10,716 nucleotides of DNA from Candidatus Bathyarchaeia archaeon. GTDB taxonomy: Archaea; Thermoproteota; Bathyarchaeia; Bathyarchaeales; Bathycorpusculaceae. Shown piece by piece: positions 1 to 10,193 of the stretch (the stretch's first letter is position 1; every line of letters begins with the position of its first letter). The stretch lies in assembly GCA_050012255.1 (NCBI GenBank), contig JBEKHN010000031.1, positions 1-10,716 on the forward strand. The letters run 5' to 3'. A model generated the notes under the pieces. The model was not told the origin of the DNA. It searched no databases and was given only the letters and a program-made list of their open reading frames with translations. The position numbers and the translations under genes are program-made.

Positions 1-639
1 CGTGTTGTACTCGTATTTTCCAACGGTTGAATGTATTTCCACGGTAAACTCGTGCAACAACACTTCGTTTGACCTTCGTATATCTTTCACTTTTACTTTG
101 ATTTCGCTTATTGTGTTGTTGCTTAATGCAAAGTTGCCTGGTGTTTCAGCAAGTATTGCTGACGGCGGCATGGTCAAGTATCTTCTTGTATAACCAAACG
201 TAGCTTTAAACTGGTCTGCCCATTGTCCCCAGAAGCCTTTTCCTTCTGCTTTGGCTTGCTCTCTTGATTGTTGCACGGCAGCGGTTAGCATTTCACTGGT
301 CATTTGCGCAAAAATCAAACGTTGATTGGTCACTACTCCAGTGTAAGTGTCGTATCTTCCGAGCGATTTTGGTTTTCTAAATAGAATCACTCCGACTGTA
401 GATTCTGAACTCATCTGCGGCATAGGTGTTGCAGGTTGCATCGCTGGCGGGGCTTGAGCAATTGAAGCCTGCGTGGGCGGAGGTGACGGTGGAGGCGGTG
501 GCGATGAAGATGGAGAATAAGCCAGACGCTCAGGTGTTGGTTGAGCATTAACAGGCAGCTTGTTAAGTGCGACTCCGCATTTGCCGCAAAATTTCTCGTT
601 TGGGTTTACTTGTGAACCACAGTTTCCGCAGTAGGGCAT
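1..639 (-). CDS. Zinc-ribbon protein with Pro-rich linker and putative PH-like C-terminal domain (partial, runs off the left edge)
   Basis: Not in the ORF track. Hand translation from ATG at 639 is open to base 1 (213 codons): MPYCGNCGSQVNPNEKFCGKCGVAL (CxxC-x10-CxxC zinc ribbon), then SPSSSPPPPPSPPP..., then a globular region with GVVTNQRLIF, reminiscent of PH-like folds. GTGAT RBS-like site at 646-650. Confidence 0.88.
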   Translation of the reverse strand, partial: MPYCGNCGSQVNPNEKFCGKCGVALNKLPVNAQPTPERLAYSPSSSPPPPPSPPPTQASIAQAPPAMQPATPMPQMSSESTVGVILFRKPKSLGRYDTYTGVVTNQRLIFAQMTSEMLTAAVQQSREQAKAEGKGFWGQWADQFKATFGYTRRYLTMPPSAILAETPGNFALSNNTISEIKVKVKDIRRSNEVLLHEFTVEIHSTVGKYEYNT

Positions 640-1000: not shown

Positions 1001-1201
1001 TTGGTAAAAAAGAAAGGTGAAGAGTATAAGTGTGAAGAATGTGGTCTTGTTGTGATGGTTGAAAATCCATGTGAATGTGAAGCATGCGAACTAGTATGTT
1101 GTGAGCAACCAATGAAACCGGTCAAATCAACAGCAAAAAGCACTGCCTCTAAGGCTCCTGCAAAGGCGTCTGAAAAAGCTCCTGAAAAACCAAAGAAGTA
1201 A
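1001..1201 (+). CDS. Desulforedoxin-like small metal-binding protein (66 aa, 7 Cys) with Lys/Ala/Pro-rich tail
   Basis: Start moved from 929 to TTG 1001 because of the AGGTGA RBS. GEEYKCEECGLVVMV...ELVCCEQPMKPV matches the desulforedoxin pattern YKCxxCGxVVxV...LVCCxxxM, with an extra CECEAC in the loop. Tail is KSTAKSTASKAPAKASEKAPEKPKK. Confidence 0.8.
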   Translation: MVKKKGEEYKCEECGLVVMVENPCECEACELVCCEQPMKPVKSTAKSTASKAPAKASEKAPEKPKK

Positions 1202-1242: not shown

Positions 1243-1365
1243 GTGTTAGTACTCGAAATTCTGCTTGAAAGAAGGAAAAGAAACCTAATACTGTTTTTTC
1301 GAAAATTAAATTGACAGAAAATATCAGTTAACACGCAAGGTTTAGAACAACTAAATGCAGAAGAA

Positions 1366-1405
1366 GCGGGTCCGACGGGAATCGAACCCGTGATATCGCG
1401 GGTTT
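1366..1405 (-). tRNA. tRNA 3'-half fragment only (Arg/Lys-like); probable att-site remnant
   Basis: The minus strand reads AAACCCGCGATATC-ACGGG-TTCGATT-CCCGT-CGGACCC-G-C: a perfect T stem-loop, acceptor 3' strand and G discriminator. I found no complementary 5' strand (GGGTCCG) or D-arm in the upstream intergenic DNA. The isotype is uncertain because the anticodon is absent. Confidence 0.8.
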
Positions 1406-1602: not shown

Positions 1603-4600
1603 CTATTTGGATTCCCCTAATTTTTCTGTTGTCAGGATCAGCTCATTTTTCACGTATTTTTGGTTGTCGAGTTTTCTGATTCTCAGAACCTTTTCTGCGC
1701 CGTTCGCGGTTTCTCTCTCGTAGACTCTTATTTCTCCCTCAAACAAACCCAAAATCGCCTGCACTTCCTCCTGTGGGTGCATCTGCGGGTCAATAACTGC
1801 TAAGGTCGTGAAGCCTTTCGCTTTCAGGTCGGAAAGAAGCCCACTCAGCCATTTTCTGGTAACTACGGCATGATGCTGCAGCAAAACATCGGAGACGATT
1901 TCGATGCAGGCTCTCTTTGGACCGGTCGCGGACGGGTTTAGTGTGCGAAAGGCTTTGGTTAGTGCGATGTCGATTTCGGTTAGGTTTTCTATGCCTTTGA
2001 TTTTAACTACGTTAGGCAGGCTCTGCATCATGGTGTCTGCTCTGGGGTTGCAGAGGAAAAGGTAAAAGTTGGACTGATACTTTTCAGCTAAGCCTTTTGT
2101 GTTCCCCAGTTTAGCCGTGAGGTAGAAGGTTGTTTCGCCTGCTTCAGCACCCGCCTCCAAGAAGCGTTTGATGAGCAGTTCTCTTTCGTCGCTAGAGGGT
2201 GCAGCCAACACGACGGCGTAATCTTCTGGTATTCCTCCCAAAAGTAGCCTGTCTAGTTCCACCGTTCCAGTAGCTACTCTTCCTAGCAACGCCTCATAAG
2301 CGGGCTTAACTGGCTGAACGGTAATGGTGATCTGGTTGAGCTTGAAAGTTTTTTTATTGCCCAAATCATCCACGTAAACGGATTGGGCATTTAGGCTATA
2401 GCTGCCTGCTTTGGTCGCTTTAAGCTTTAATTCTACCGTTTCAACCTGGAACGGACCGATGCTTTTGTCTTTAACCTCGAGACTACCGTTTTTTAGGCTG
2501 CACCAAGATGGCAAGCTGACAACATTGAATTCAGGGGTGATTACGCCCTCGATTGTAATAAACGTCGCCACTGTTCTTCCGACGTTGACGAGGTCAAGGC
2601 GCATCTCAAACTCCTCCCCAACCAGAACCCTCCTAGAAACCATTAGATTCAATTGCACGTTGGCGTGCCCAAACCTTTCTTCAGCCTGATCAAGAAACTT
2701 CTGAGCTTTGTCCCGCTGAACTTTTGCCTCCTCAACACGACCCTGCTTCTCAAGAGCCCAAGCATACCATCTTCTAACCGATGCTCCGACGGCAGACATG
2801 CGACATACCTCCGACTCTAGAAGTTTTTCGAAAGACTGATTCGATTCTTCCCAACAGGCCTTCGCAGCAAAATACACCCCCTTAGCCAGGGGCACAAACA
2901 AAACATTATGCGCGTTCGAGAGAACCTCTGGAGGCAGTTTGCTCATTCTATCGAAGTATTCATCCGCATTCTTGAAATTCCCAAGCAAACTGTATGTCTG
3001 GACAAGATTTGCGTAAACAACCCCTTGAGTCCAACTTGCATCTGTTTTCTTACTGTACTCCAACCCTTTCAAGGCTATCGACAGTGCCTCCGCAAGTCTC
3101 CCATCCTCTGATTCAAACATGCTCAACCGATAGGTTGGAATAAACAGTTCGGTGAAAACGCCCAATTTCTCGCCTACCCTGAGGACTTCAGTAAATTCTC
3201 GCCTAGCTTCCGGAAAAAGACCGCTCTGAAAGAACCCCTGCCCTATCCACCTGATAGTTTCTATTTCTCCGCGGACGTCGCCTAGTTCCCTAAAAATGGC
3301 GGCTGAACGCAGAAGTTCACCTAAGCCTTTTTCGGGTAAACCAACATAAGCGACGTATAAGATGCCGCTTCTCCACAGTGCTTCGGCGGCGTCAGCAACA
3401 GAATTCTCTTCTTCAAACACCTGTAATGCAGCGTCATAGTCTGCCAAATCCATTCCGAAATCTCCGCGTCCTGCCCAACCATGGGCTTTTCCCCGGTTGT
3501 CGATGATTCTCGCCATCTCCAAGCGGTCATCCACAGCCAACTCCTGCGCCTTCTTTGCGTATTCCAGCAATAGGTCGGGCTTGTCGCCTTCGGCGTAGGC
3601 TGCGTCTGAGGCTTTTCTAATGGCACGAAGCCGCAACCCACCCGTTTCATACGCCGCGAGCTCGTCAAACGTTTTTATAGCTTCGCCATACATGCAATTA
3701 GAAGCGTAAGCGTCTCCCAGCCCTTCTAACGCGGTTCTCTTCTCTTCAAGATGGCCTTCTGGAATATTCTGGAGTACGTACTTGAAGTGTTTGATGGCTT
3801 GCGTGTTGCTCCACTTTGTCAGCTCGTCTTTCCCTGAGGCCAGGGCGTACTTTACTGCTTTCTCCCTGTTTCCAGCTTGAGCATAGTGGTAAGCTATGTC
3901 GCTGACACGCAGCTCGGAGTCCTTTGTGCTTTCAAGTTTCTCTCCGATTCTGTTGTGGTACCCGCGTTTTAGGGGTGGAGAAAGCTCTTCATAGAGTGTT
4001 TCTCGGGACCTTGCATGATTGAACCTATAACGGTTTTCTTCGACACAGACCAGCGAAGTAGAATGGGCAATCACGTTTAACGTTTCAAGAACCTCTAAAC
4101 TATCCTGCCCAAGTACAGTGCTGAGAAGTTCAACATCAAATTCTTCACCGATCACAGAAGCAGCGTCAAGAATGCGTCTTTGCGCGTATTTTAGGCATGC
4201 TAGTCTGCGCAATATGATGTCTTTAATTTTGCTTGGTATCCCAAGCTCGTCGACAGCGAGTCGCCACTCATTGTTTTCCTGGACAAGGCTTTTGCGTTCA
4301 TGCAGCATACGCAGCGACTCAACAACAAAGAGCGGGTTGCCCCTGCTTTCAGCTGAGAGTTTATCCGCCAGCTCTTGTTGCAGGCTTGCTCCCATCATGC
4401 TTTCTGCCATCTTAGAGACACAGGCTTGGTTGAGGCTTGACAGCTTGATTTCCGTGAACAGTTCCTCGCGCCGCATCATGCGAAGGGTTTCAGCCAGCGG
4501 ATGCGGACGCCCCTCAGCGTCAGCTGTGAGTTCCTCACTTCTAAACGTCGCTAAAACGAGGACTCTTTCTGAATCATTGATTGCTCTAGCGATGTAATGG

Positions 4601-5148
4601 AGAAGCGCCAGCGAGGCTGAATCCGCCCAGTGAACGTCCTCGATAAACAAGACTACAGGGCCATTGACGGCTATTGTGTGGAGTGTCTTAGCGACGCCTG
4701 CGAAGACTTGGTCTTTCCAGACTTGAGGTGAGATAGTTTCGGGCTTTCCAGGCTTTAGGGCTTGCTCGGTTCTGGTTAGCCACGCTGTTATCCCACGTTC
4801 CTCAGCTATCGTTTGAAAAGAGAGGTTCAGCGGTTCGGATGGCTGGCTGAAACTGCTATTTTGTTCTGTTTCTGAGGAAGCAAAGTAGTTGTTGAAGGCT
4901 TCAATGAAAGGGAAGAAAGGGACTTGAGCATCGCTTAGGCACCAACCAGCCATCACAGCTACACCCGCATTCATAGCAGACATTAGGAATTCACGGGTTA
5001 CTCTGGTTTTTCCGCTGCCTGCATCGCCCGAGACAAAAACCGTTTTTCCCTTTCCTTCAACAGCCACATTTAGGAGTGATTGTAGCTCTTCAAGTTCTTT
5101 TTCTCTCCCAACAAGAACGGGCTCAGCTAAAACTCCAAGTTTAGGCAT
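1603..5148 (-). CDS. STAND (AAA_16-like) NTPase - winged helix - TPR - Ig-like - inactive KaiC/RAD55-like protein, paralogue B (1181 aa)
   Basis: Start moved to ATG 5148 (MPKLGVLAEPVLVGRE) by alignment with the paralogue. Motifs: LVGRE, Walker A GDAGSGKT (5005-5028), Walker B LFIEDVHWAD, GxP motif GNPLFV, YRFNH. Helical TPR-like repeats ~2670-3900; beta-rich domain ~2300-2660; KaiC-like TGxxELDxLLxGGIP start at ~2280. Confidence 0.93.
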   Translation of the reverse strand: MPKLGVLAEPVLVGREKELEELQSLLNVAVEGKGKTVFVSGDAGSGKTRVTREFLMSAMNAGVAVMAGWCLSDAQVPFFPFIEAFNNYFASSETEQNSSFSQPSEPLNLSFQTIAEERGITAWLTRTEQALKPGKPETISPQVWKDQVFAGVAKTLHTIAVNGPVVLFIEDVHWADSASLALLHYIARAINDSERVLVLATFRSEELTADAEGRPHPLAETLRMMRREELFTEIKLSSLNQACVSKMAESMMGASLQQELADKLSAESRGNPLFVVESLRMLHERKSLVQENNEWRLAVDELGIPSKIKDIILRRLACLKYAQRRILDAASVIGEEFDVELLSTVLGQDSLEVLETLNVIAHSTSLVCVEENRYRFNHARSRETLYEELSPPLKRGYHNRIGEKLESTKDSELRVSDIAYHYAQAGNREKAVKYALASGKDELTKWSNTQAIKHFKYVLQNIPEGHLEEKRTALEGLGDAYASNCMYGEAIKTFDELAAYETGGLRLRAIRKASDAAYAEGDKPDLLLEYAKKAQELAVDDRLEMARIIDNRGKAHGWAGRGDFGMDLADYDAALQVFEEENSVADAAEALWRSGILYVAYVGLPEKGLGELLRSAAIFRELGDVRGEIETIRWIGQGFFQSGLFPEARREFTEVLRVGEKLGVFTELFIPTYRLSMFESEDGRLAEALSIALKGLEYSKKTDASWTQGVVYANLVQTYSLLGNFKNADEYFDRMSKLPPEVLSNAHNVLFVPLAKGVYFAAKACWEESNQSFEKLLESEVCRMSAVGASVRRWYAWALEKQGRVEEAKVQRDKAQKFLDQAEERFGHANVQLNLMVSRRVLVGEEFEMRLDLVNVGRTVATFITIEGVITPEFNVVSLPSWCSLKNGSLEVKDKSIGPFQVETVELKLKATKAGSYSLNAQSVYVDDLGNKKTFKLNQITITVQPVKPAYEALLGRVATGTVELDRLLLGGIPEDYAVVLAAPSSDERELLIKRFLEAGAEAGETTFYLTAKLGNTKGLAEKYQSNFYLFLCNPRADTMMQSLPNVVKIKGIENLTEIDIALTKAFRTLNPSATGPKRACIEIVSDVLLQHHAVVTRKWLSGLLSDLKAKGFTTLAVIDPQMHPQEEVQAILGLFEGEIRVYERETANGAEKVLRIRKLDNQKYVKNELILTTEKLGESK
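2008..2054. repeat. 47-bp perfect direct repeat, copy 1 (copy 2 at 5641-5687)
   Basis: TACGTTAGGCAGGCTCTGCATCATGGTGTCTGCTCTGGGGTTGCAGA is identical in both paralogues and encodes CNPRADTMMQSLPNV. Confidence 0.9.
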
Positions 5149-5224
5149 ATCGACCGCCCGCGTTCTTACGCAGGATCGTTTCAGATTCTTCCAGTAAGCA
5201 AATATAAGCGGAACCACTCAAAAA
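5149..5224 (-). promoter_or_regulatory. Possible internal terminator and promoter between the paralogues
   Basis: The minus strand shows TTTTT (5220-5224), then TTATATT (5201-5207), then GGCGGT shortly before ATG 5148. Confidence 0.35.
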
Positions 5225-5259
5225 GTTTTGCATCCATTCAAGAGCCCCACCTGTTTCTT

Positions 5260-8200
5260 CTATTTTAAGATCAGTTCCTCTTTCAGGTAGTTTTGGTTGA
5301 TGAGTTTTAGAATCTTCAGTGTTCTCACCAGACCCTTTTCGCCCTCTTTCTCGGCTATTCTGATTTCTCCGTCGAACAGCCCCAGAATAGTCTGCGTTTC
5401 TTCCGATGGGTGCATGCCTGGATCGATTACTGCAAGGGTTGTGAAGCCTTTTGCTTTTAGGTCTGGAAGGAGTGCGCTGAGCCATTTTCTCGTGATTACT
5501 GCGTGGTGTTGGAGAAGAACGTCAGATATGATTTCGATGCAGGCTCTTTTTTGGCCAGCTGCAGCATGGTTCAGAGTACGTAAGGTCTTGACTAAGGCTA
5601 TGTCGATTTCGGTTAGGTTTTCTACGCCTTTAAGTTTAATTACGTTAGGCAGGCTCTGCATCATGGTGTCTGCTCTGGGGTTGCAGACAAATAGGTGAAA
5701 GTTGGCCTGACATTTTTCGGCTAGAGCTTTAGTGTTTCCGGCTTCTGTGGTTATGTAGAAGGTTGTCTCGCAGGTTTCTCTGCCTGCCTCTATGAAGCGT
5801 TTGATGAGTAGGTTTCTTTCGTCGCTCGAGGGAGCCGCAAGGATCACTGAGTAGTTTTCGGGTATCCCTCCTCCCAGCAGGTCGTCGAGTTCGTCGAAGC
5901 CGCTGGAAACCCGTCCCGGAAGAACATGAACGATTGGTTGAGCTGGCTTAACCGTAACGGTGATTGAGTCAAGTTCGCATGTTTTGCTCTCGCCTAACTC
6001 GTCTATGTGGGATACTTTCGGGTTTAAGGCAAAAGTTCCAGTTTTCAAAGCTTGCAAAGTGAGCTTTGCTGTTTCAACTTGGAAAGCGCCGATTTCTCTG
6101 TTTTTCATTTCGATGCTGCAGTTTTGCAAGGCACACCAAGGCGACATTGAGATGACTTTGAACCCTTCAGAAGGAACTACGCCTTCAGCTCTGACAAGCA
6201 AACCCAGCTTCCTTGAAGCGTTGACGAAGTCGAGGCGCATTTCGAACTCTTCGCCAACCCTAACTTCTCTGCGAACCATCAAACTCGCCTTTAAATTGAC
6301 ATGAGCAAACCTTTCTTCAACATCCCGATACAACTTCTGGACTTCTTCAAGCTGAACCCTAACCTCCTCAAACAGTCCTTGTCTCTCAAGAGCCCAACTC
6401 CAATGATTTCTTAACAACACTTCGAAGCCTATGGGTTGTCCATTACGGCTTAATTCCTCGAAGGCTTTTTTGAAACGTTGATCCGCCTCTATCCACTGAC
6501 TCTTGGCAGCAAAAAACACAGCTCCTGAAAGAGCAACAAAAAAAGCGATCCCGAGGATTGGGGTTGACAAAATTTCTGGAGGAAAATTCATGAGTTTCGC
6601 ATAGTACTCTTCAGCGTGCTCTACATCTCCAAGCCTAACATATTGTCTGACTAATGCAGAGTAATTAGTGACATTTGACTTATCATAACATTCTATTGCC
6701 TTCAAGCTGTGAGAGATAGCATCCGAAAAAAGTTCCCGGCGCTCAAAATCCAGACCAACTGTAAAAGTCGCAACAGCTTTGTGCCTAGGTTGGCCTCCTA
6801 TCTTCTCAAGAACCTTTATGAGATTTAAATTTGTGCTATTTGATTCTTCAAAAAGCCCACAAACGGAAAAAACGTATCCTTTCATCATTAGCGCTTCGAT
6901 TTGTCCTGGAAAATCTTCAAGCTCTTGGTATAGGGCAACTGATCGTAGAATCGAGCTAACTGCTTTTTCCTGCAGACCTGCAGTATTGGAATAGACATAG
7001 CTGATATGGAAGAAAACCCTTGCGGCATCCTCAAGAGAGTATTCTTCCTCAAAAACCCGCAAAGCCTCTTCAGAAGTCTTTGAGCTTGTCTTGAATTCGC
7101 CAGAAGCATTTTCAGCTTTTGCCTTAAACAAAAGAACTCGCGCACTTTCCAAACGATCAGAGCCCGCATACTTCTCAGCCTCCTTTGCCAACTCAATCGC
7201 ATGACTAGCGGCTACAGCAAAAATAGTTGCGTCTAATGCTTTTCGGTAGGCTCGCAGCCTCACCTTTCCAGTCTCCGATTTAGCAAGTGACTCGAAGATC
7301 TTTCCCGCTTCAACATACATGCTATTCGCATAGAATGCGTCGCCAAGTCCTTCCTTGGCTATCATTCTTGCATTTGTATTTTCTGCCGTTTCAGAAATGT
7401 TTTGGAGTACATAGTTGAAGTGTTTGATGGCTTCTTGGTTGCTATATTTTGCGAGTGTGTCTTGGCCTGCAGCCAACGAGTACTCCATAGCTTTTTCCTT
7501 ATTTCCTGCCTGAGTAAAATGGTAAGCTAAATCACTAAGAGGCAAATTGCTGTTTTTGCCCATGTTTTCAAGTTTTTCCGCAATTCTGGCATGATAGCCC
7601 TTCTTCAGGGGCAAAGGCAGTTCTTCATAGAGTGCTTCTCGAGACTTTGCGTGGTCAAACCTGTAGCAGTCGCCTTCGACGCGAACAATTGAAGTTGTCT
7701 GGGCAATTACAGTCAGAGTTTCGAGCACATCTAGACGGTCTTGATTTAGGACTACGCTGAGAAGGTCCAGGTCGAATTTTTCGCCTATCACGGAAGCTGC
7801 TTCAAGCACTCTTGTTTGGGGGCGCTTTAGGATCGCGAGTCTTCTTAGGATGATGTCTTTGATTTTTGTGGGTATGCCCAGTTCGTCGACGGTGATGCGC
7901 CACTCATTGTTTTCTTGGATTAGACTTTTGCGTTCAAAGAGCATTCGAAGGGATTCTACGACAAAGAGTGGGTTGCCCTGGCTTTCCGCTATCAGTTTTT
8001 CTGCTAGGTTTGGTTGGAGGTTTCCGCCTATCATGTTTTCAGCTATCTTTTCGACGTCGGTATGGTTTAGGTTTGGGAGTTTGATTTCTGTGTAGAGGTC
8101 TTCTCGCCCCATCGCCCGCAGCGCTTCAGCCAGAGGATGCGGGTGCCCTTCAGCGTCAGAGGTTAACGCTTCGCTTCGGAAAGTCGCCAAAACCAAAATT

Positions 8201-8790
8201 TTTTCGGAGTTGTTTACTGAGCGGGCAATGTACTGCAGAAGCGCCAAAGAGGCGGAGTCTGCCCAGTGAATATCCTCCAAAAACAATATGATAGGCTCCT
8301 GAGCGGATATTAAATGTAGGGATCTTGCTACGGCGGCGAACGCATGGTCTTTCCAAACTTGGGGCGAAAGTAATTGGGGCTGTCCCAGTTTTGTGGCTGC
8401 TCCAGGCCCAGTCAGCAGCGTCGAAATATCCTGGTTTTCGCTTCCGATCTGTGCCACTTCCCCTAAGCCGATCCGGGCTCCGGGTTGCTGGAAGCTGACG
8501 GACTCTTCTTCTTCGATGACGGATGCTGAGTAAGTGTTGAAGGCTTCTATAAATGGGAAGTAGGGGACTGCTGCGTCGCTGAGACACCATCCAGCCATGA
8601 CTGCGATGCCTTTTTTCTTGGCGGCGTTTAGGAATTCTCGGGTGAGTCTTGTTTTTCCGCTTCCCGCTTCGCCTGATATGAAAACAGTTGTGCCTTCGCC
8701 CCGAACAGCTGAATCGAAGCAGCGCTGCAGTTCCTCAAGTTCACGTTCTCTGCCTACCAGGACGGGTTCAGATAGGATCGCTTGTTTCAT
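5260..8790 (-). CDS. STAND (AAA_16-like) NTPase - winged helix - TPR - Ig-like - inactive KaiC/RAD55-like protein, paralogue A (1176 aa)
   Basis: Motifs: LVGRE, Walker A GEAGSGKT (8650-8673), Walker B LFLEDIHWAD, GNPLFV, YRFDH. TPR-like repeats ~6310-7530; beta-rich domain ~5940-6305; KaiC-like SGFDELDDLLGGGIP start at ~5913. AGGA upstream of the ATG. Confidence 0.94.
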   Translation of the reverse strand: MKQAILSEPVLVGRERELEELQRCFDSAVRGEGTTVFISGEAGSGKTRLTREFLNAAKKKGIAVMAGWCLSDAAVPYFPFIEAFNTYSASVIEEEESVSFQQPGARIGLGEVAQIGSENQDISTLLTGPGAATKLGQPQLLSPQVWKDHAFAAVARSLHLISAQEPIILFLEDIHWADSASLALLQYIARSVNNSEKILVLATFRSEALTSDAEGHPHPLAEALRAMGREDLYTEIKLPNLNHTDVEKIAENMIGGNLQPNLAEKLIAESQGNPLFVVESLRMLFERKSLIQENNEWRITVDELGIPTKIKDIILRRLAILKRPQTRVLEAASVIGEKFDLDLLSVVLNQDRLDVLETLTVIAQTTSIVRVEGDCYRFDHAKSREALYEELPLPLKKGYHARIAEKLENMGKNSNLPLSDLAYHFTQAGNKEKAMEYSLAAGQDTLAKYSNQEAIKHFNYVLQNISETAENTNARMIAKEGLGDAFYANSMYVEAGKIFESLAKSETGKVRLRAYRKALDATIFAVAASHAIELAKEAEKYAGSDRLESARVLLFKAKAENASGEFKTSSKTSEEALRVFEEEYSLEDAARVFFHISYVYSNTAGLQEKAVSSILRSVALYQELEDFPGQIEALMMKGYVFSVCGLFEESNSTNLNLIKVLEKIGGQPRHKAVATFTVGLDFERRELFSDAISHSLKAIECYDKSNVTNYSALVRQYVRLGDVEHAEEYYAKLMNFPPEILSTPILGIAFFVALSGAVFFAAKSQWIEADQRFKKAFEELSRNGQPIGFEVLLRNHWSWALERQGLFEEVRVQLEEVQKLYRDVEERFAHVNLKASLMVRREVRVGEEFEMRLDFVNASRKLGLLVRAEGVVPSEGFKVISMSPWCALQNCSIEMKNREIGAFQVETAKLTLQALKTGTFALNPKVSHIDELGESKTCELDSITVTVKPAQPIVHVLPGRVSSGFDELDDLLGGGIPENYSVILAAPSSDERNLLIKRFIEAGRETCETTFYITTEAGNTKALAEKCQANFHLFVCNPRADTMMQSLPNVIKLKGVENLTEIDIALVKTLRTLNHAAAGQKRACIEIISDVLLQHHAVITRKWLSALLPDLKAKGFTTLAVIDPGMHPSEETQTILGLFDGEIRIAEKEGEKGLVRTLKILKLINQNYLKEELILK
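5641..5687. repeat. 47-bp perfect direct repeat, copy 2 (copy 1 at 2008-2054)
   Basis: Identical to 2008-2054, offset 3633 bp. Confidence 0.9.
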
Positions 8791-8969
8791 AATTTCCTAC
8801 TTCTGCCATTCAGGTTAACATCAAAGTTACTCTAGTGTTGACGCTTCTGGGTATTTTAAACTTGAGAATAAACACCAGAATCAAGCACCAATTTTGGTAA
8901 AGAGTTTTAACAAATATCAAACAAAATAAATATAATTTAATATACTAGTTGCATAAATAACAGAAAAAC
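8791..8969. promoter_or_regulatory. Divergent promoter region (STAND paralogue A / MFS)
   Basis: AT-rich 179 bp. Minus-strand TTTAAAAT at 8853-8860. Plus-strand TTTAATAT at 8936-8943 lies 26 bp before the MFS ATG with no RBS, consistent with a leaderless mRNA. Confidence 0.55.
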
Positions 8970-10193
8970 ATGAGCGCCCCACAGCCTGCCGTCAAGAAAA
9001 GTCTTAGAAGCCAATTGTTCCTGCCAGCCTTGATCTTAGGCAGTTTCTTAACATTTACATTCGCAGTTTTCTATTACAATGCTCTGGTAGACGTAGCTTC
9101 CACGCTAAAAGTCACTGTGGGAACCGCAAGCCAGATTCCAACGGTTAGCAGTTATATGGGTCTTATCGTAGGTTTAGCCATGGGCTTTTTGGCCGTCAAA
9201 TACAAGCATAAATCATTGTTCCTGTTTGGAACGGCATTTTACGCCGTCGGAGCTCTGGGCTGCTTCTTCGCCGCAGATTTTGCCTCTATGCTCTTCTTCA
9301 ATATTTTCATTGGAATGGGCAGCACAATGATTGCCATTATGGTTTTCGCCTTAATCGGAGATTTCTTTTTTTTGCAAAAAAAGGGTTTAGCAATTGGGCT
9401 AGCAACAGCTGCAGGTGGTGGTCTTGCGAACTTGATTATGCCTCAATTGACGAGTGTGATCACGGACGCCGCGGGATGGCGCGCCGTGCTCTTGTGGGTT
9501 ATTTTTCCAATCTCAATAGCATGTTTGCTTCTAGGCTTTTTCATCCTTCCTTCGAAACCGCGGCAGTTGCAGGCTGCAAACAAGCCTCAATACGTGCAGG
9601 CTTTTAAACAAGTCTTGATAAACAAATCCGCAGTTGCATGCGTGGTCGGAACGGCGCTCATGTGGGTCTCATTCCTGGTGCCCGTGTATGCAGTGACGTT
9701 TTTCAGGTTGCATTTTCATGAGTCTTTGAGTACGGGCGCGATCTTCTATTCGGCCGCTTCAGCAATGCTGATTTTAGGAGACATAGTTGGGGGACGATTG
9801 ATTAACCGAATCGGGAGGAAACCTCTCACAGTTGTGGCAGGTGTGATCCAGGGAATATTCGCGATCTTGATCGTTTTTGTTCCCAATGCAGGGATATCTG
9901 TAGTAATGTGGATGGTATCAGCAGCTTTTGGTGGTATAATGGTAACGGCTCTTATCGGTTTGGTTCTTGAGCAAGTTCCAGGTTTTCGAGGCACGATGGT
10001 GTCTCTAAATGCTTCGTTTCGGTACATTGGCCTAATTGTGGGATTGAGCATAAGCGGTTTGTTGCTAAACCTTTACGCTAACAACTTTCAAATCCTATAT
10101 GCAATGTTTGGGGTTTGCGGCGTAGCCTCAGCTGCCGTTGTGTTCTTTTTTGCAAAAGATCCTTGCAAAAACCAATTGCCTCCAACTGCCTGA
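8970..10193 (+). CDS. MFS transporter (DHA1/AraJ-like efflux permease), 407 aa
   Basis: About 12 hydrophobic segments in two halves; motif A-like GGRLINRIGRK in the second half; GWRAV after TM5; FRGTMVSLN before TM11. Substrate unknown. Confidence 0.93.
   Translation: MSAPQPAVKKSLRSQLFLPALILGSFLTFTFAVFYYNALVDVASTLKVTVGTASQIPTVSSYMGLIVGLAMGFLAVKYKHKSLFLFGTAFYAVGALGCFFAADFASMLFFNIFIGMGSTMIAIMVFALIGDFFFLQKKGLAIGLATAAGGGLANLIMPQLTSVITDAAGWRAVLLWVIFPISIACLLLGFFILPSKPRQLQAANKPQYVQAFKQVLINKSAVACVVGTALMWVSFLVPVYAVTFFRLHFHESLSTGAIFYSAASAMLILGDIVGGRLINRIGRKPLTVVAGVIQGIFAILIVFVPNAGISVVMWMVSAAFGGIMVTALIGLVLEQVPGFRGTMVSLNASFRYIGLIVGLSISGLLLNLYANNFQILYAMFGVCGVASAAVVFFFAKDPCKNQLPPTA

Follow-up and report, generated by a model that had tools for sequence, protein, structure and literature searches.

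A tandem pair of archaeal STAND-TPR proteins that end in an Ig-like and degenerate KaiC module and adjoin a transporter gene

What can two very large STAND-TPR proteins do when no effector precedes their nucleoside triphosphatase (NTPase) and their last domain is KaiC-like and has no P-loop? The question is raised by two tandem genes, A and B, on contig JBEKHN010000031.1 of a Candidatus Bathyarchaeia archaeon (assembly GCA_050012255.1). The window analysed here is the whole of this contig (C31; 10,716 bp), one of the 38 contigs of a 2.35-Mb genome with a completeness of 98.5%. Both proteins consist of a STAND NTPase core, a TPR region, an immunoglobulin (Ig)-like domain and the degenerate KaiC domain, termed pseudo-KaiC below, and gene B is divergent from a transporter gene. 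They are read here, tentatively and at a little less than an even chance, as cytoplasmic ligand-gated STAND switches of the MalT/PH0952 kind (AAA_16) tied to solute uptake, in which the dead KaiC domain would serve as a nucleotide-free oligomerisation or docking module.

Gene B (P0002; 5260..8790, minus strand) encodes 1176 aa, and gene A (P0001 from its residue 24; 1603..5148, minus strand) encodes a paralogue of 1181 aa. The open reading frame (ORF) of gene A with a GTG start spans 1603-5217 (minus strand). The true start is likely the ATG at 5148-5146; the sequence from this codon aligns with residue 2 of gene B, and a non-homologous leader of 23 residues is dropped. The proteins are 56% identical from end to end (1182 aligned columns); identity was 62% in the nucleotide-binding domain (NBD), 71% in the helical and winged-helix domains, 35% in the C-terminal part of the TPR region, 48% in the Ig domain and 72.5% in the pseudo-KaiC domain. 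A quick tree was built from 41 NOD regions (NTPase, helical and winged-helix-like domains), after 7 of 48 rows with fewer than 400 aligned residues had been dropped. Genes A and B do not pair with each other in this tree: the nearest relative is L053_5641 (73%) for gene B and L051 (83%) for gene A. As judged from these sequences, the genes are old paralogues and a recent duplication is not supported.

The NTPase begins about 10 residues after the N-terminus in both proteins. It was matched by Pfam AAA_16 at 92.8 bits in gene A and 105.5 bits in gene B (cut-off 32.6), from residue 11 of the latter, and no recognisable domain was found N-terminal to it in either protein (Pfam, NCBIfam, AlphaFold2 model). 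The Walker A motif of gene B is GEAGSGKT (8650..8673, minus strand) and that of gene A is GDAGSGKT; the Walker B motifs of the two proteins are LFLEDIHWAD and LFIEDVHWAD. Residues G40, G43, G45, K46, D173, D178, R205 and G272 (gene B numbering) were invariant across 118 family sequences, and Walker A, the Walker B aspartates, R205 and the GNPLF motif were invariant or nearly so. An N-terminal GxxxxGK[ST] was present in 118 of 119 full-length homologues. The original prediction, made from the letters of the window alone, had described a tandem pair of paralogues of this four-part architecture with intact STAND motifs, and the ORFs, Pfam, the model and the invariant Walker residues bear this out. 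Its further claim, a receptor family without an N-terminal effector, is true of the window pair, in which the NTPase starts at about residue 11, and does not hold for one relative, L039, which carries an N-terminal protein kinase.

Full-length gene B was modelled with AlphaFold2 (AF2) on 118 homologues (mean pLDDT 84). In the model the NTPase (residues 14-240) is followed by helical and winged-helix-like domains (243-390), about 22 helices (393-827), a 12-strand beta sandwich (833-948) and an alpha-beta domain (960-1176), and the NBD, helical, winged-helix and repeat-sensor order of STAND NTPases is present. By AF2 secondary structure the NOD comprises residues 1-392 (7615..8790, minus strand); the TPR-like sensor region, delimited from the model and Pfam, comprises residues 393-830 (6301..7614, minus strand; about 22 helices). 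The best Protein Data Bank match of the full-length model in Foldseek was PH0952 (6mfv_A; E 9e-10, 754 columns, TMq 0.26, TMt 0.41, root-mean-square deviation (rmsd) 17); at this TMq and rmsd, the order of the domains is common to both proteins and the mutual positions of the domains are not.

TPR_12 was matched at 39.4 bits in gene A, above the cut-off of 30.1, and at 21.4 bits in gene B, below it. Conservation across the family is lowest in the TPR region, which matches the consensus at 0.45-0.53, and residues 546-830 of gene B are 35% identical to gene A. The best NCBIfam match of both proteins was the central AAA_16-TPR part of TIGR03903 ('TOMM kinase/cyclase fusion'; E 1e-50 to 1e-51); the scores of 172-175 bits are far under the cut-off of 705.75, so the proteins are not members. 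The AbsR2 model matched the NTPase part only (26.5 bits; cut-off 850), and no helix-turn-helix (HTH) family matched either protein at E<=0.01 (Pfam, NCBIfam).

The C-terminal module begins with an all-beta domain (gene B residues 831-950; 5941..6300, minus strand; pLDDT ~90). Pfam gave a weak BatD/DUF11-like match there, with BatD at 19.4 bits (cut-off 24.1). Structure matches were taken from a model of the two domains of the module (Ig and pseudo-KaiC), in which VIA-align matched the beta domain (model residues 6-124) to the cohesin module 2vo8_A (Z 12.2, rmsd 2.6, 118 aligned); the domain also resembled complement MG domains. The modelled likeness to cohesin and MG domains indicates an Ig-like sandwich and nothing further.

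The last domain covers gene B residues 955-1176 (5263..5928, minus strand), as delimited by Foldseek, VIA-align and Pfam PF06745; its counterpart in gene A, located on the translation, lies at 1606..2292 (minus strand). Pfam KaiC (PF06745) was matched at the C-terminus at 47.4 bits in gene A and 53.6 bits in gene B (cut-off 26.6). The C-terminal 350 residues were modelled separately with AF2 from 25 sequences (pLDDT 89). The closest structural matches were PH0284 (Foldseek 2dr3_F, E 8.8e-14, TMt 0.75; VIA-align 2dr3_A, Z 22.4, rmsd 2.7, 204 aligned) and SSO2452 (2w0m_A, Z 22.4), and VIA-align also gave KaiC at about Z 20 and FlaH at Z 17.3. A RecA/KaiC fold is confidently assigned from the model.

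The sequence AAPSSDER (5815..5838, minus strand) stands at the KaiC Walker A position in gene B, in place of GxxGxGK[ST], and so the name pseudo-KaiC is correct. A Walker A motif was found in 0 of 119 full-length homologues (last 260 residues) and in 0 of 25 module sequences. The P, D and E of the pseudo-P-loop are conserved across these 25 sequences, which represent four architectures. Also conserved in the module are C-N-P, S-D (at the Walker B position), R275, W277, F-T, H301 and F-G-E-I (A1 numbering; the gene B number is A1 + 826). Of all these, the P, D and E of the pseudo-P-loop and S-D, R, W, H and F-G-E were invariant or nearly so. By both A-B identity and the family profile, the pseudo-KaiC domain is the most conserved part of the protein. 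A variable TPR region with a conserved pseudo-KaiC domain is what would be expected, at the level of sequence, of a sensor joined to a common output.

Self-association of the pseudo-KaiC domain was predicted from three copies, with a score of 0.59 against 0.01 for the best control; in the calibration, 20 of 30 solved pairs and 1 of 23 single chains came up to the mark. The prediction used a custom alignment and three copies, unlike the calibration, and rings of KaiC and PH0284 have been solved, so the pass may reflect memory or likeness. At least 84% of contacts agreed between runs, and partner pLDDT was at least 85. The predicted interface consists of the pseudo-P-loop (161-164 and 167) with residues 263, 267-268 and 297-302 in the first copy, and of residues 271-275, 280-283, 302-311 and 336-339 (the R275 region) in the next (A1 numbering). 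In the models it is predicted to correspond to the RecA-type inter-subunit nucleotide site. The RecA/KaiC fold had been named beforehand in the original prediction as a point on which it could be refuted, and it was found (2dr3_A, Z 22.4). The 'pseudo' label given there agrees with the AAPSSDER sequence, the proposed TPR sensor and KaiC-like output agree with the contrast in conservation, and the proposed clustering of the KaiC-like domain agrees with the predicted self-association.

The family is large. A word-indexed protein search gave 2369 matches, the best 120 of which were 50-76% identical (the query itself aside) and nearly all covered 98-100% of the query (P0030, 72%; P0079, 95%; P0102, 68%). 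More than 100 clusters were at least 50% identical over the full length. Among the matches listed, the few with source names were labelled Bathyarchaeia or Bathyarchaeota, and several stood on the same contig. Ig+pseudo-KaiC matches at E<1e-40 were found in 14 genomes of a 401-genome phylum sample, all of one class, and the weaker matches were ordinary KaiC-like proteins of about 270 aa. A class sample gave a match at E<=1e-60 in 43 of 401 genomes. When genome contigs were searched with a single protein for related loci, only 2 distant AAA_16 relatives appeared, bacterial or from Thermoplasmata. Among the genomes sampled, the family is by sequence confined to Bathyarchaeia. With the 222-aa domain as query, an exhaustive HMMER search of 1.84 billion representatives detected it in 620 proteins at E<=1e-3 and in 212 at E<=1e-30; counted as clusters at the 50% level, 212 have the domain. 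The pseudo-KaiC domain was almost always C-terminal, in proteins of about 140 to 1443 aa.

As far as domain order can tell, Ig+pseudo-KaiC is a mobile C-terminal cassette. It is carried on the STAND-TPR core in the two genes of the window, in L016, L017 and L021 and in metagenome loci (architecture a), and on a TPR/SNAP-like region that is all helical, has no P-loop and spans about 970 aa, in proteins of about 1300-1375 aa (architecture b). In architecture (c) it follows an HTH_45 winged helix (wHTH), as a 327-aa wHTH-pseudoKaiC or a wHTH-Ig-pseudoKaiC of about 450 aa, and in architecture (d) the cassette has short N-termini. A doubled pseudo-KaiC is found in a 1553-aa TPR giant (architecture e; L040 7892-12553, minus strand), in tandem after the Ig domain; the doubling recalls the CI-CII duplication of KaiC. 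Architecture (f) is a 1461-aa Pkinase-STAND-TPR-pseudoKaiC protein (L039 7705-12090, minus strand) with PF00069 at its N-terminus (E 1e-53), a PknK-like layout with a dead KaiC tail. In 66 mid-size module members KaiC was matched in 63 and TPR_12 in 20, and WD40, LRR_8, CBS and SMODS-associated NUDIX domains in one each. DUF7504 (PF24336) was matched in 24 of the 66 at E<=1e-4. Module relatives gave DUF7504 scores of 33.8 and 37.4 bits, above its cut-off of 27; in gene A it reached 19.3 bits, and for gene B it was not listed.

The cassette is also found incomplete. In many close STAND-TPR-Ig homologues the protein stops at the Ig domain and pseudo-KaiC is missing. The same is true of three architecture-(b) proteins of about 1100 aa in the genome of the window itself, which combine the P-loop-less TPR/SNAP-like region with Ig (L006, L007 and L008; C23:14353-17637, C5:59570-62860 and C4:105853-109167, all minus strand). 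At least 8 copies of proteins with the P-loop-less TPR/SNAP-like body were found in one genome (G324). In the NOD tree the proteins that bear pseudo-KaiC formed one clade of 17 rows (98 SH-aLRT) and a separate, long-branch clade without Ig. Family members with in-frame stops, or split, occur at G665:C3, G683:C22, G703:C10, G693:C14 and L035 6772-9985 and are probably pseudogenes. In L035, collagen-repeat proteins follow each STAND gene.

The MFS gene of the window (8970..10193, plus strand; Pfam MFS_1 132 bits) is separated from gene B by a divergent intergenic, presumed promoter region of 179 bp (8791..8969), and MFS genes divergent from a STAND gene recur in other loci. The neighbourhood was examined in 35 close-family loci, 14 from genomes (the window included) and 21 from metagenomes. 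An MFS gene or a Peripla_BP_6 (LivJ-type) solute-binding protein (SBP) gene was directly adjacent in 18 of the 35. When ORFs of at least 100 aa were counted, 19 of 58 adjacent ones were transporter-type (13 MFS, 6 SBP), against 1 of 164 non-adjacent ones in the same loci. The genome of the window has about 15 MFS genes and no Peripla_BP_6. On the NOD tree MFS and SBP neighbours were interspersed (4 changes each, with clustering no greater than for shuffled labels), which argues against a single inherited synteny block. The P-loop-less giants also adjoin SBP genes, in L012 (twice), L014 and L015.

In the mechanism proposed for a ligand-gated uptake switch, the variable C-terminal half of the TPR array would bind a small-molecule or protein signal related to the substrate of the neighbouring transporter. 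Binding would free the nucleotide-binding core from autoinhibition, with exchange of ADP for ATP and multimerisation. The pseudo-KaiC domains, which would bind no ATP through a P-loop, would then pack side by side through the RecA-type ring interface, the degenerate site included, and their association would stabilise the active oligomer or form a docking platform. The association may also mix the two paralogues, whose tails are 72% identical. The controlled target would most likely be the expression or activity of the adjacent MFS uptake system, or elsewhere of the ABC binding-protein system. A precedent is MalT, described in PMC6468293 as a STAND protein that governs an uptake regulon and is itself restrained by MalK, the ATPase of the transporter. 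The partner domains found in the family (the Ser/Thr kinase of L039 and the wHTH, TPR, WD40, LRR and CBS fusions) point to signalling and not to killing.

Several findings weigh against this reading. Neither protein showed a DNA-binding or an enzymatic output domain (Pfam, NCBIfam), which leaves the step from oligomer to target unexplained. The genome of the window holds no other pseudo-KaiC, wHTH-pseudoKaiC, DUF7504 or canonical KaiC-like ATPase of about 250 aa as a docking partner; the partner search there found only RadA, a RadB-like protein and a THEP1-like NTPase. The link to transporters is itself partial. Seventeen of the 35 close loci have no transporter neighbour, nor has any locus of the divergent STAND+pseudo-KaiC clade that lacks Ig (8 loci: L022-L027, L038 and L039), all of which lay outside the 35, and the Fisher p of 1e-11 for the adjacency enrichment is overstated, since kin are not independent. 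An alignment of the gene B-MFS intergenic regions of 7 loci showed no conserved operator, with blocks shared only by the closest relatives (the window, L028 and L029). Finally, at least 10 close STAND-TPR-Ig homologues without pseudo-KaiC keep the MFS neighbour, so pseudo-KaiC is not essential to the link between family and transporter. For the same reason the view of the original prediction that the KaiC-like domain is the output of the family is not sustained: many close homologues end after the Ig domain and keep the transporter gene.

The DNA around the pair bears on other explanations and was examined with contigs of sequencing runs. A 3'-terminal tRNA fragment (T arm and acceptor) lies at 1362..1390 (minus strand); no full tRNA is present in the window, where Rfam and ARAGORN matched nothing. 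Contigs of runs X2 and X3 track the window up to 1390 and then diverge from it, and they go on with sequence that looks, by eye, like a tRNA-Lys(UUU) anticodon arm. In run X1, which may be the source, depth is 63-120 left of about 1432 and drops to about 16.5 across the STAND-MFS part; an X1 contig also links 1800 directly with 10304 and leaves out 8503 bases. The STAND pair therefore seems to lie in strain-variable DNA. The tRNA junction is possibly an attachment-site remnant of an element integrated at the tRNA; alternatively, it may be a contig mis-join. The GC content of the contig is 0.457, against about 0.48 in large contigs, and one family homologue adjoins an integrase. Between 1890 and 8734 of the window, X3 and X5 contigs (90-95% alike) connect positions in gene A with positions in gene B and skip 3648-3718 bases, close to the 3642-base period of the tandem pair. 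These joins may come from relatives with a single or recombinant copy, or from ambiguous mapping in conserved parts.

A broader role of the cassette is possible, if doubtful. The pseudo-KaiC domain would be a Bathyarchaeia-specific, nucleotide-free homotypic 'adaptor ring' that wires many sensors into one mixed oligomeric hub, and its functional analogues would be death-fold/CARD adaptors or the ring of pseudo-ATPases in Elp456. Its acidic pseudo-P-loop (P-S-x-D-E) would replace the phosphates of ATP and face the conserved arginine of the neighbouring subunit. The inputs would be the STAND-TPR proteins, the P-loop-less TPR giants, the kinase-STAND, WD40, LRR and CBS proteins and the wHTH DNA binders, and the tandem pair of the window would form two input channels of the hub.

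The module also has a second genomic context. A cluster that recurs in relatives consists of a 360-aa LPG_synthase_TM-like membrane protein, a wHTH-(Ig)-pseudoKaiC protein, a canonical 252-aa KaiC-like ATPase (PF06745 E 2e-63, GGPGTGKT) and a bactofilin(-zinc-ribbon) protein. It was found, whole or in part, in most of 20 short-form loci and in L009, L010 and L018; the loci of relatives noted for it are L009, L010, L018 and L123-L136. It is conceivable, though unlikely, that the pseudo-KaiC domain of the window proteins is a homotypic adaptor into this KaiC hub, which would control envelope or shape and not uptake. The conservation of the cluster speaks for this, as does the pseudo-KaiC of the wHTH proteins, which is 59-60% identical to that of gene B. 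RecA-fold pseudo-ATPases are moreover known to form mixed rings, and Elp456 (Z 18.1) and RAD51 paralogue complexes (Z 16-17) are among the structural neighbours of the domain. Against it, the cluster adjoins the P-loop-less TPR giants and not STAND genes, and the wHTH-pseudoKaiC fusion occurs in 0 of the 4 genomes with STAND-Ig-pseudoKaiC (G000, G077, G324 and G624). The genome of the window keeps a bactofilin gene (C3:24495-25718) adjoining a stand-alone 91-aa wHTH (C3:26121-26396), which is 78% identical to the fused wHTH and carries no pseudo-KaiC, and it lacks the canonical KaiC-like ATPase. A direct sensor-to-wHTH adaptor model for the window was considered and is not supported, given the fusion in 0 of 4 genomes and the missing partners.

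Antiviral defence was the other option left by the original prediction, which had spoken of a signalling or an immune system. The proteins would be Avs-like receptors against viruses or mobile elements, whose TPRs bind a viral protein and whose clustered pseudo-KaiC ring triggers an abortive response. The STAND+TPR architecture would suit this, as would the ancient divergence of the tandem paralogues and the hypervariability of their TPR region, the patchy distribution (the 43 of 401 class genomes at E<=1e-60), the pseudogenised copies in some genomes, the SMODS-associated NUDIX on one of the 66 module proteins and the position of the pair beside a tRNA 3' fragment in strain-variable DNA, with one homologue beside an integrase. 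Defence is nevertheless quite improbable. Neither protein contains a nuclease, protease, TIR, Sir2 or transmembrane effector (Pfam, NCBIfam), the presumed output domain is catalytically dead, and related architectures carry a kinase or a wHTH. PADLOC gave P-loop-level matches only (BrxD 26.6 and 23.4 bits; SngB 14.8 bits), and the genes that recur beside the family code for MFS and SBP proteins and not for defence; on these two grounds the immune option of the original prediction is not supported. The same strain-variable setting would allow the transporter adjacency to be hitch-hiking, with STAND and MFS/SBP genes as co-cargo of variable islands and an unrelated scaffold or chaperone role for the proteins. 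The pair and the MFS gene indeed lie to the right of the tRNA 3' fragment, where, as noted, other runs part from the window and the X1 depth drops, the contig has the lower GC content given above, and 17 of 35 loci have no transporter neighbour. This explanation is very unlikely all the same, as the adjacency is immediate, often divergent and recurrent across families and metagenomes, MFS and SBP partners are interspersed on the tree, and other ORFs in the same loci are hardly ever transporters (1 of 164).

Reading the proteins as ligand-gated switches tied to solute uptake is thus preferred here, and it has wider bearings. Bathyarchaeia are abundant, uncultured archaea of sediment and soil whose signalling is almost unknown. 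The family may show a STAND switch that works without a classical effector, and a dead RecA/KaiC domain would join the list of STAND-associated output or assembly modules. The idea of archaeal KaiC-like hubs becomes testable on a defined domain with predicted interface residues, and the transporter linkage offers a handle, the substrate as inducer, on ligands of orphan archaeal transporters.

Two further ORFs of the window stand to the left of the pair. One (1001-1201, plus strand) encodes a Cys-rich protein of 66 aa, to which PF06397, the N-terminal, desulforedoxin-type domain of desulfoferrodoxin, was matched at 24.7 bits (cut-off 23). The other (1-639, minus strand) is open at the contig end and encodes an N-terminal zinc ribbon (PF13240, 23.9 bits, just under the cut-off of 25), then a proline-rich linker and about 130 C-terminal aa without a family match.

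STAND-TPR regulators, KaiC-like hubs and inactivated KaiC domains are already known. The STAND-TPR-Ig-pseudoKaiC architecture, its behaviour as a cassette across Bathyarchaeia and the transporter linkage were not found in full-text literature searches, which did not extend to the survey of Makarova et al. (2017); within the same scope no functional description of the family was found, in keeping with what the original prediction had supposed.

Avs proteins are STAND NTPases with an N-terminal effector (nuclease, protease, TIR, Sir2 and others). The window proteins share with them the STAND NTPase, the TPR-like sensor, the very large size and the variability of the sensors, but have no N-terminal effector, match no Avs model of PADLOC and stand beside transporter genes. 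BREX BrxC/BrxD was considered and rejected: NCBIfam BrxD gave 26 and 21.8 bits (cut-off 350) over residues ~11-117 only, and no BREX genes were found in the window (ORFs, Pfam). The AAA_16-TPR signalling enzymes (PknK-type kinases, adenylate cyclases and TIGR03903) have the AAA_16-TPR part in common with the window proteins, and a Bathyarchaeia relative has the kinase-STAND-TPR layout, whereas the window proteins carry no kinase or cyclase domain.

The pseudo-KaiC domain shares the fold and PF06745 with PH0284 (2DR3), SSO2452 (2W0M), FlaH/ArlH (4YDS) and cyanobacterial KaiC, and may, as predicted, also self-associate at the nucleotide site, but lacks the Walker A lysine and threonine in all members examined. 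Unlike the single-domain KaiC-like proteins, it is a C-terminal appendage of multidomain proteins. Elp456, a ring of RecA-fold pseudo-ATPases, is close to it in structure (Z 18.1). An 'inactivated KaiC-like ATPase domain' (iKaiC) fused to signalling domains is credited to Makarova et al. (2017) in the passages of Galperin et al. (2018; PMC5847659) that deal with it; the iKaiC/DUF7504 fusions described in those passages are with REC and HalOD1 in haloarchaea and methanogens, whereas the fusion here is with STAND-TPR-Ig in Bathyarchaeia.

The nearest known systems for the proteins as a whole are PH0952 of Pyrococcus horikoshii (6MFV) and E. coli MalT, both STAND NTPases with a TPR/SUPR sensor, with which they share an AAA_16-type NTPase, helical and winged-helix domains, an arm and then a TPR sensor. 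The C-terminal LuxR-type HTH of MalT/LAL activators was not found in the window proteins, which carry instead, after the sensor, an Ig/cohesin-like domain and a dead KaiC domain.

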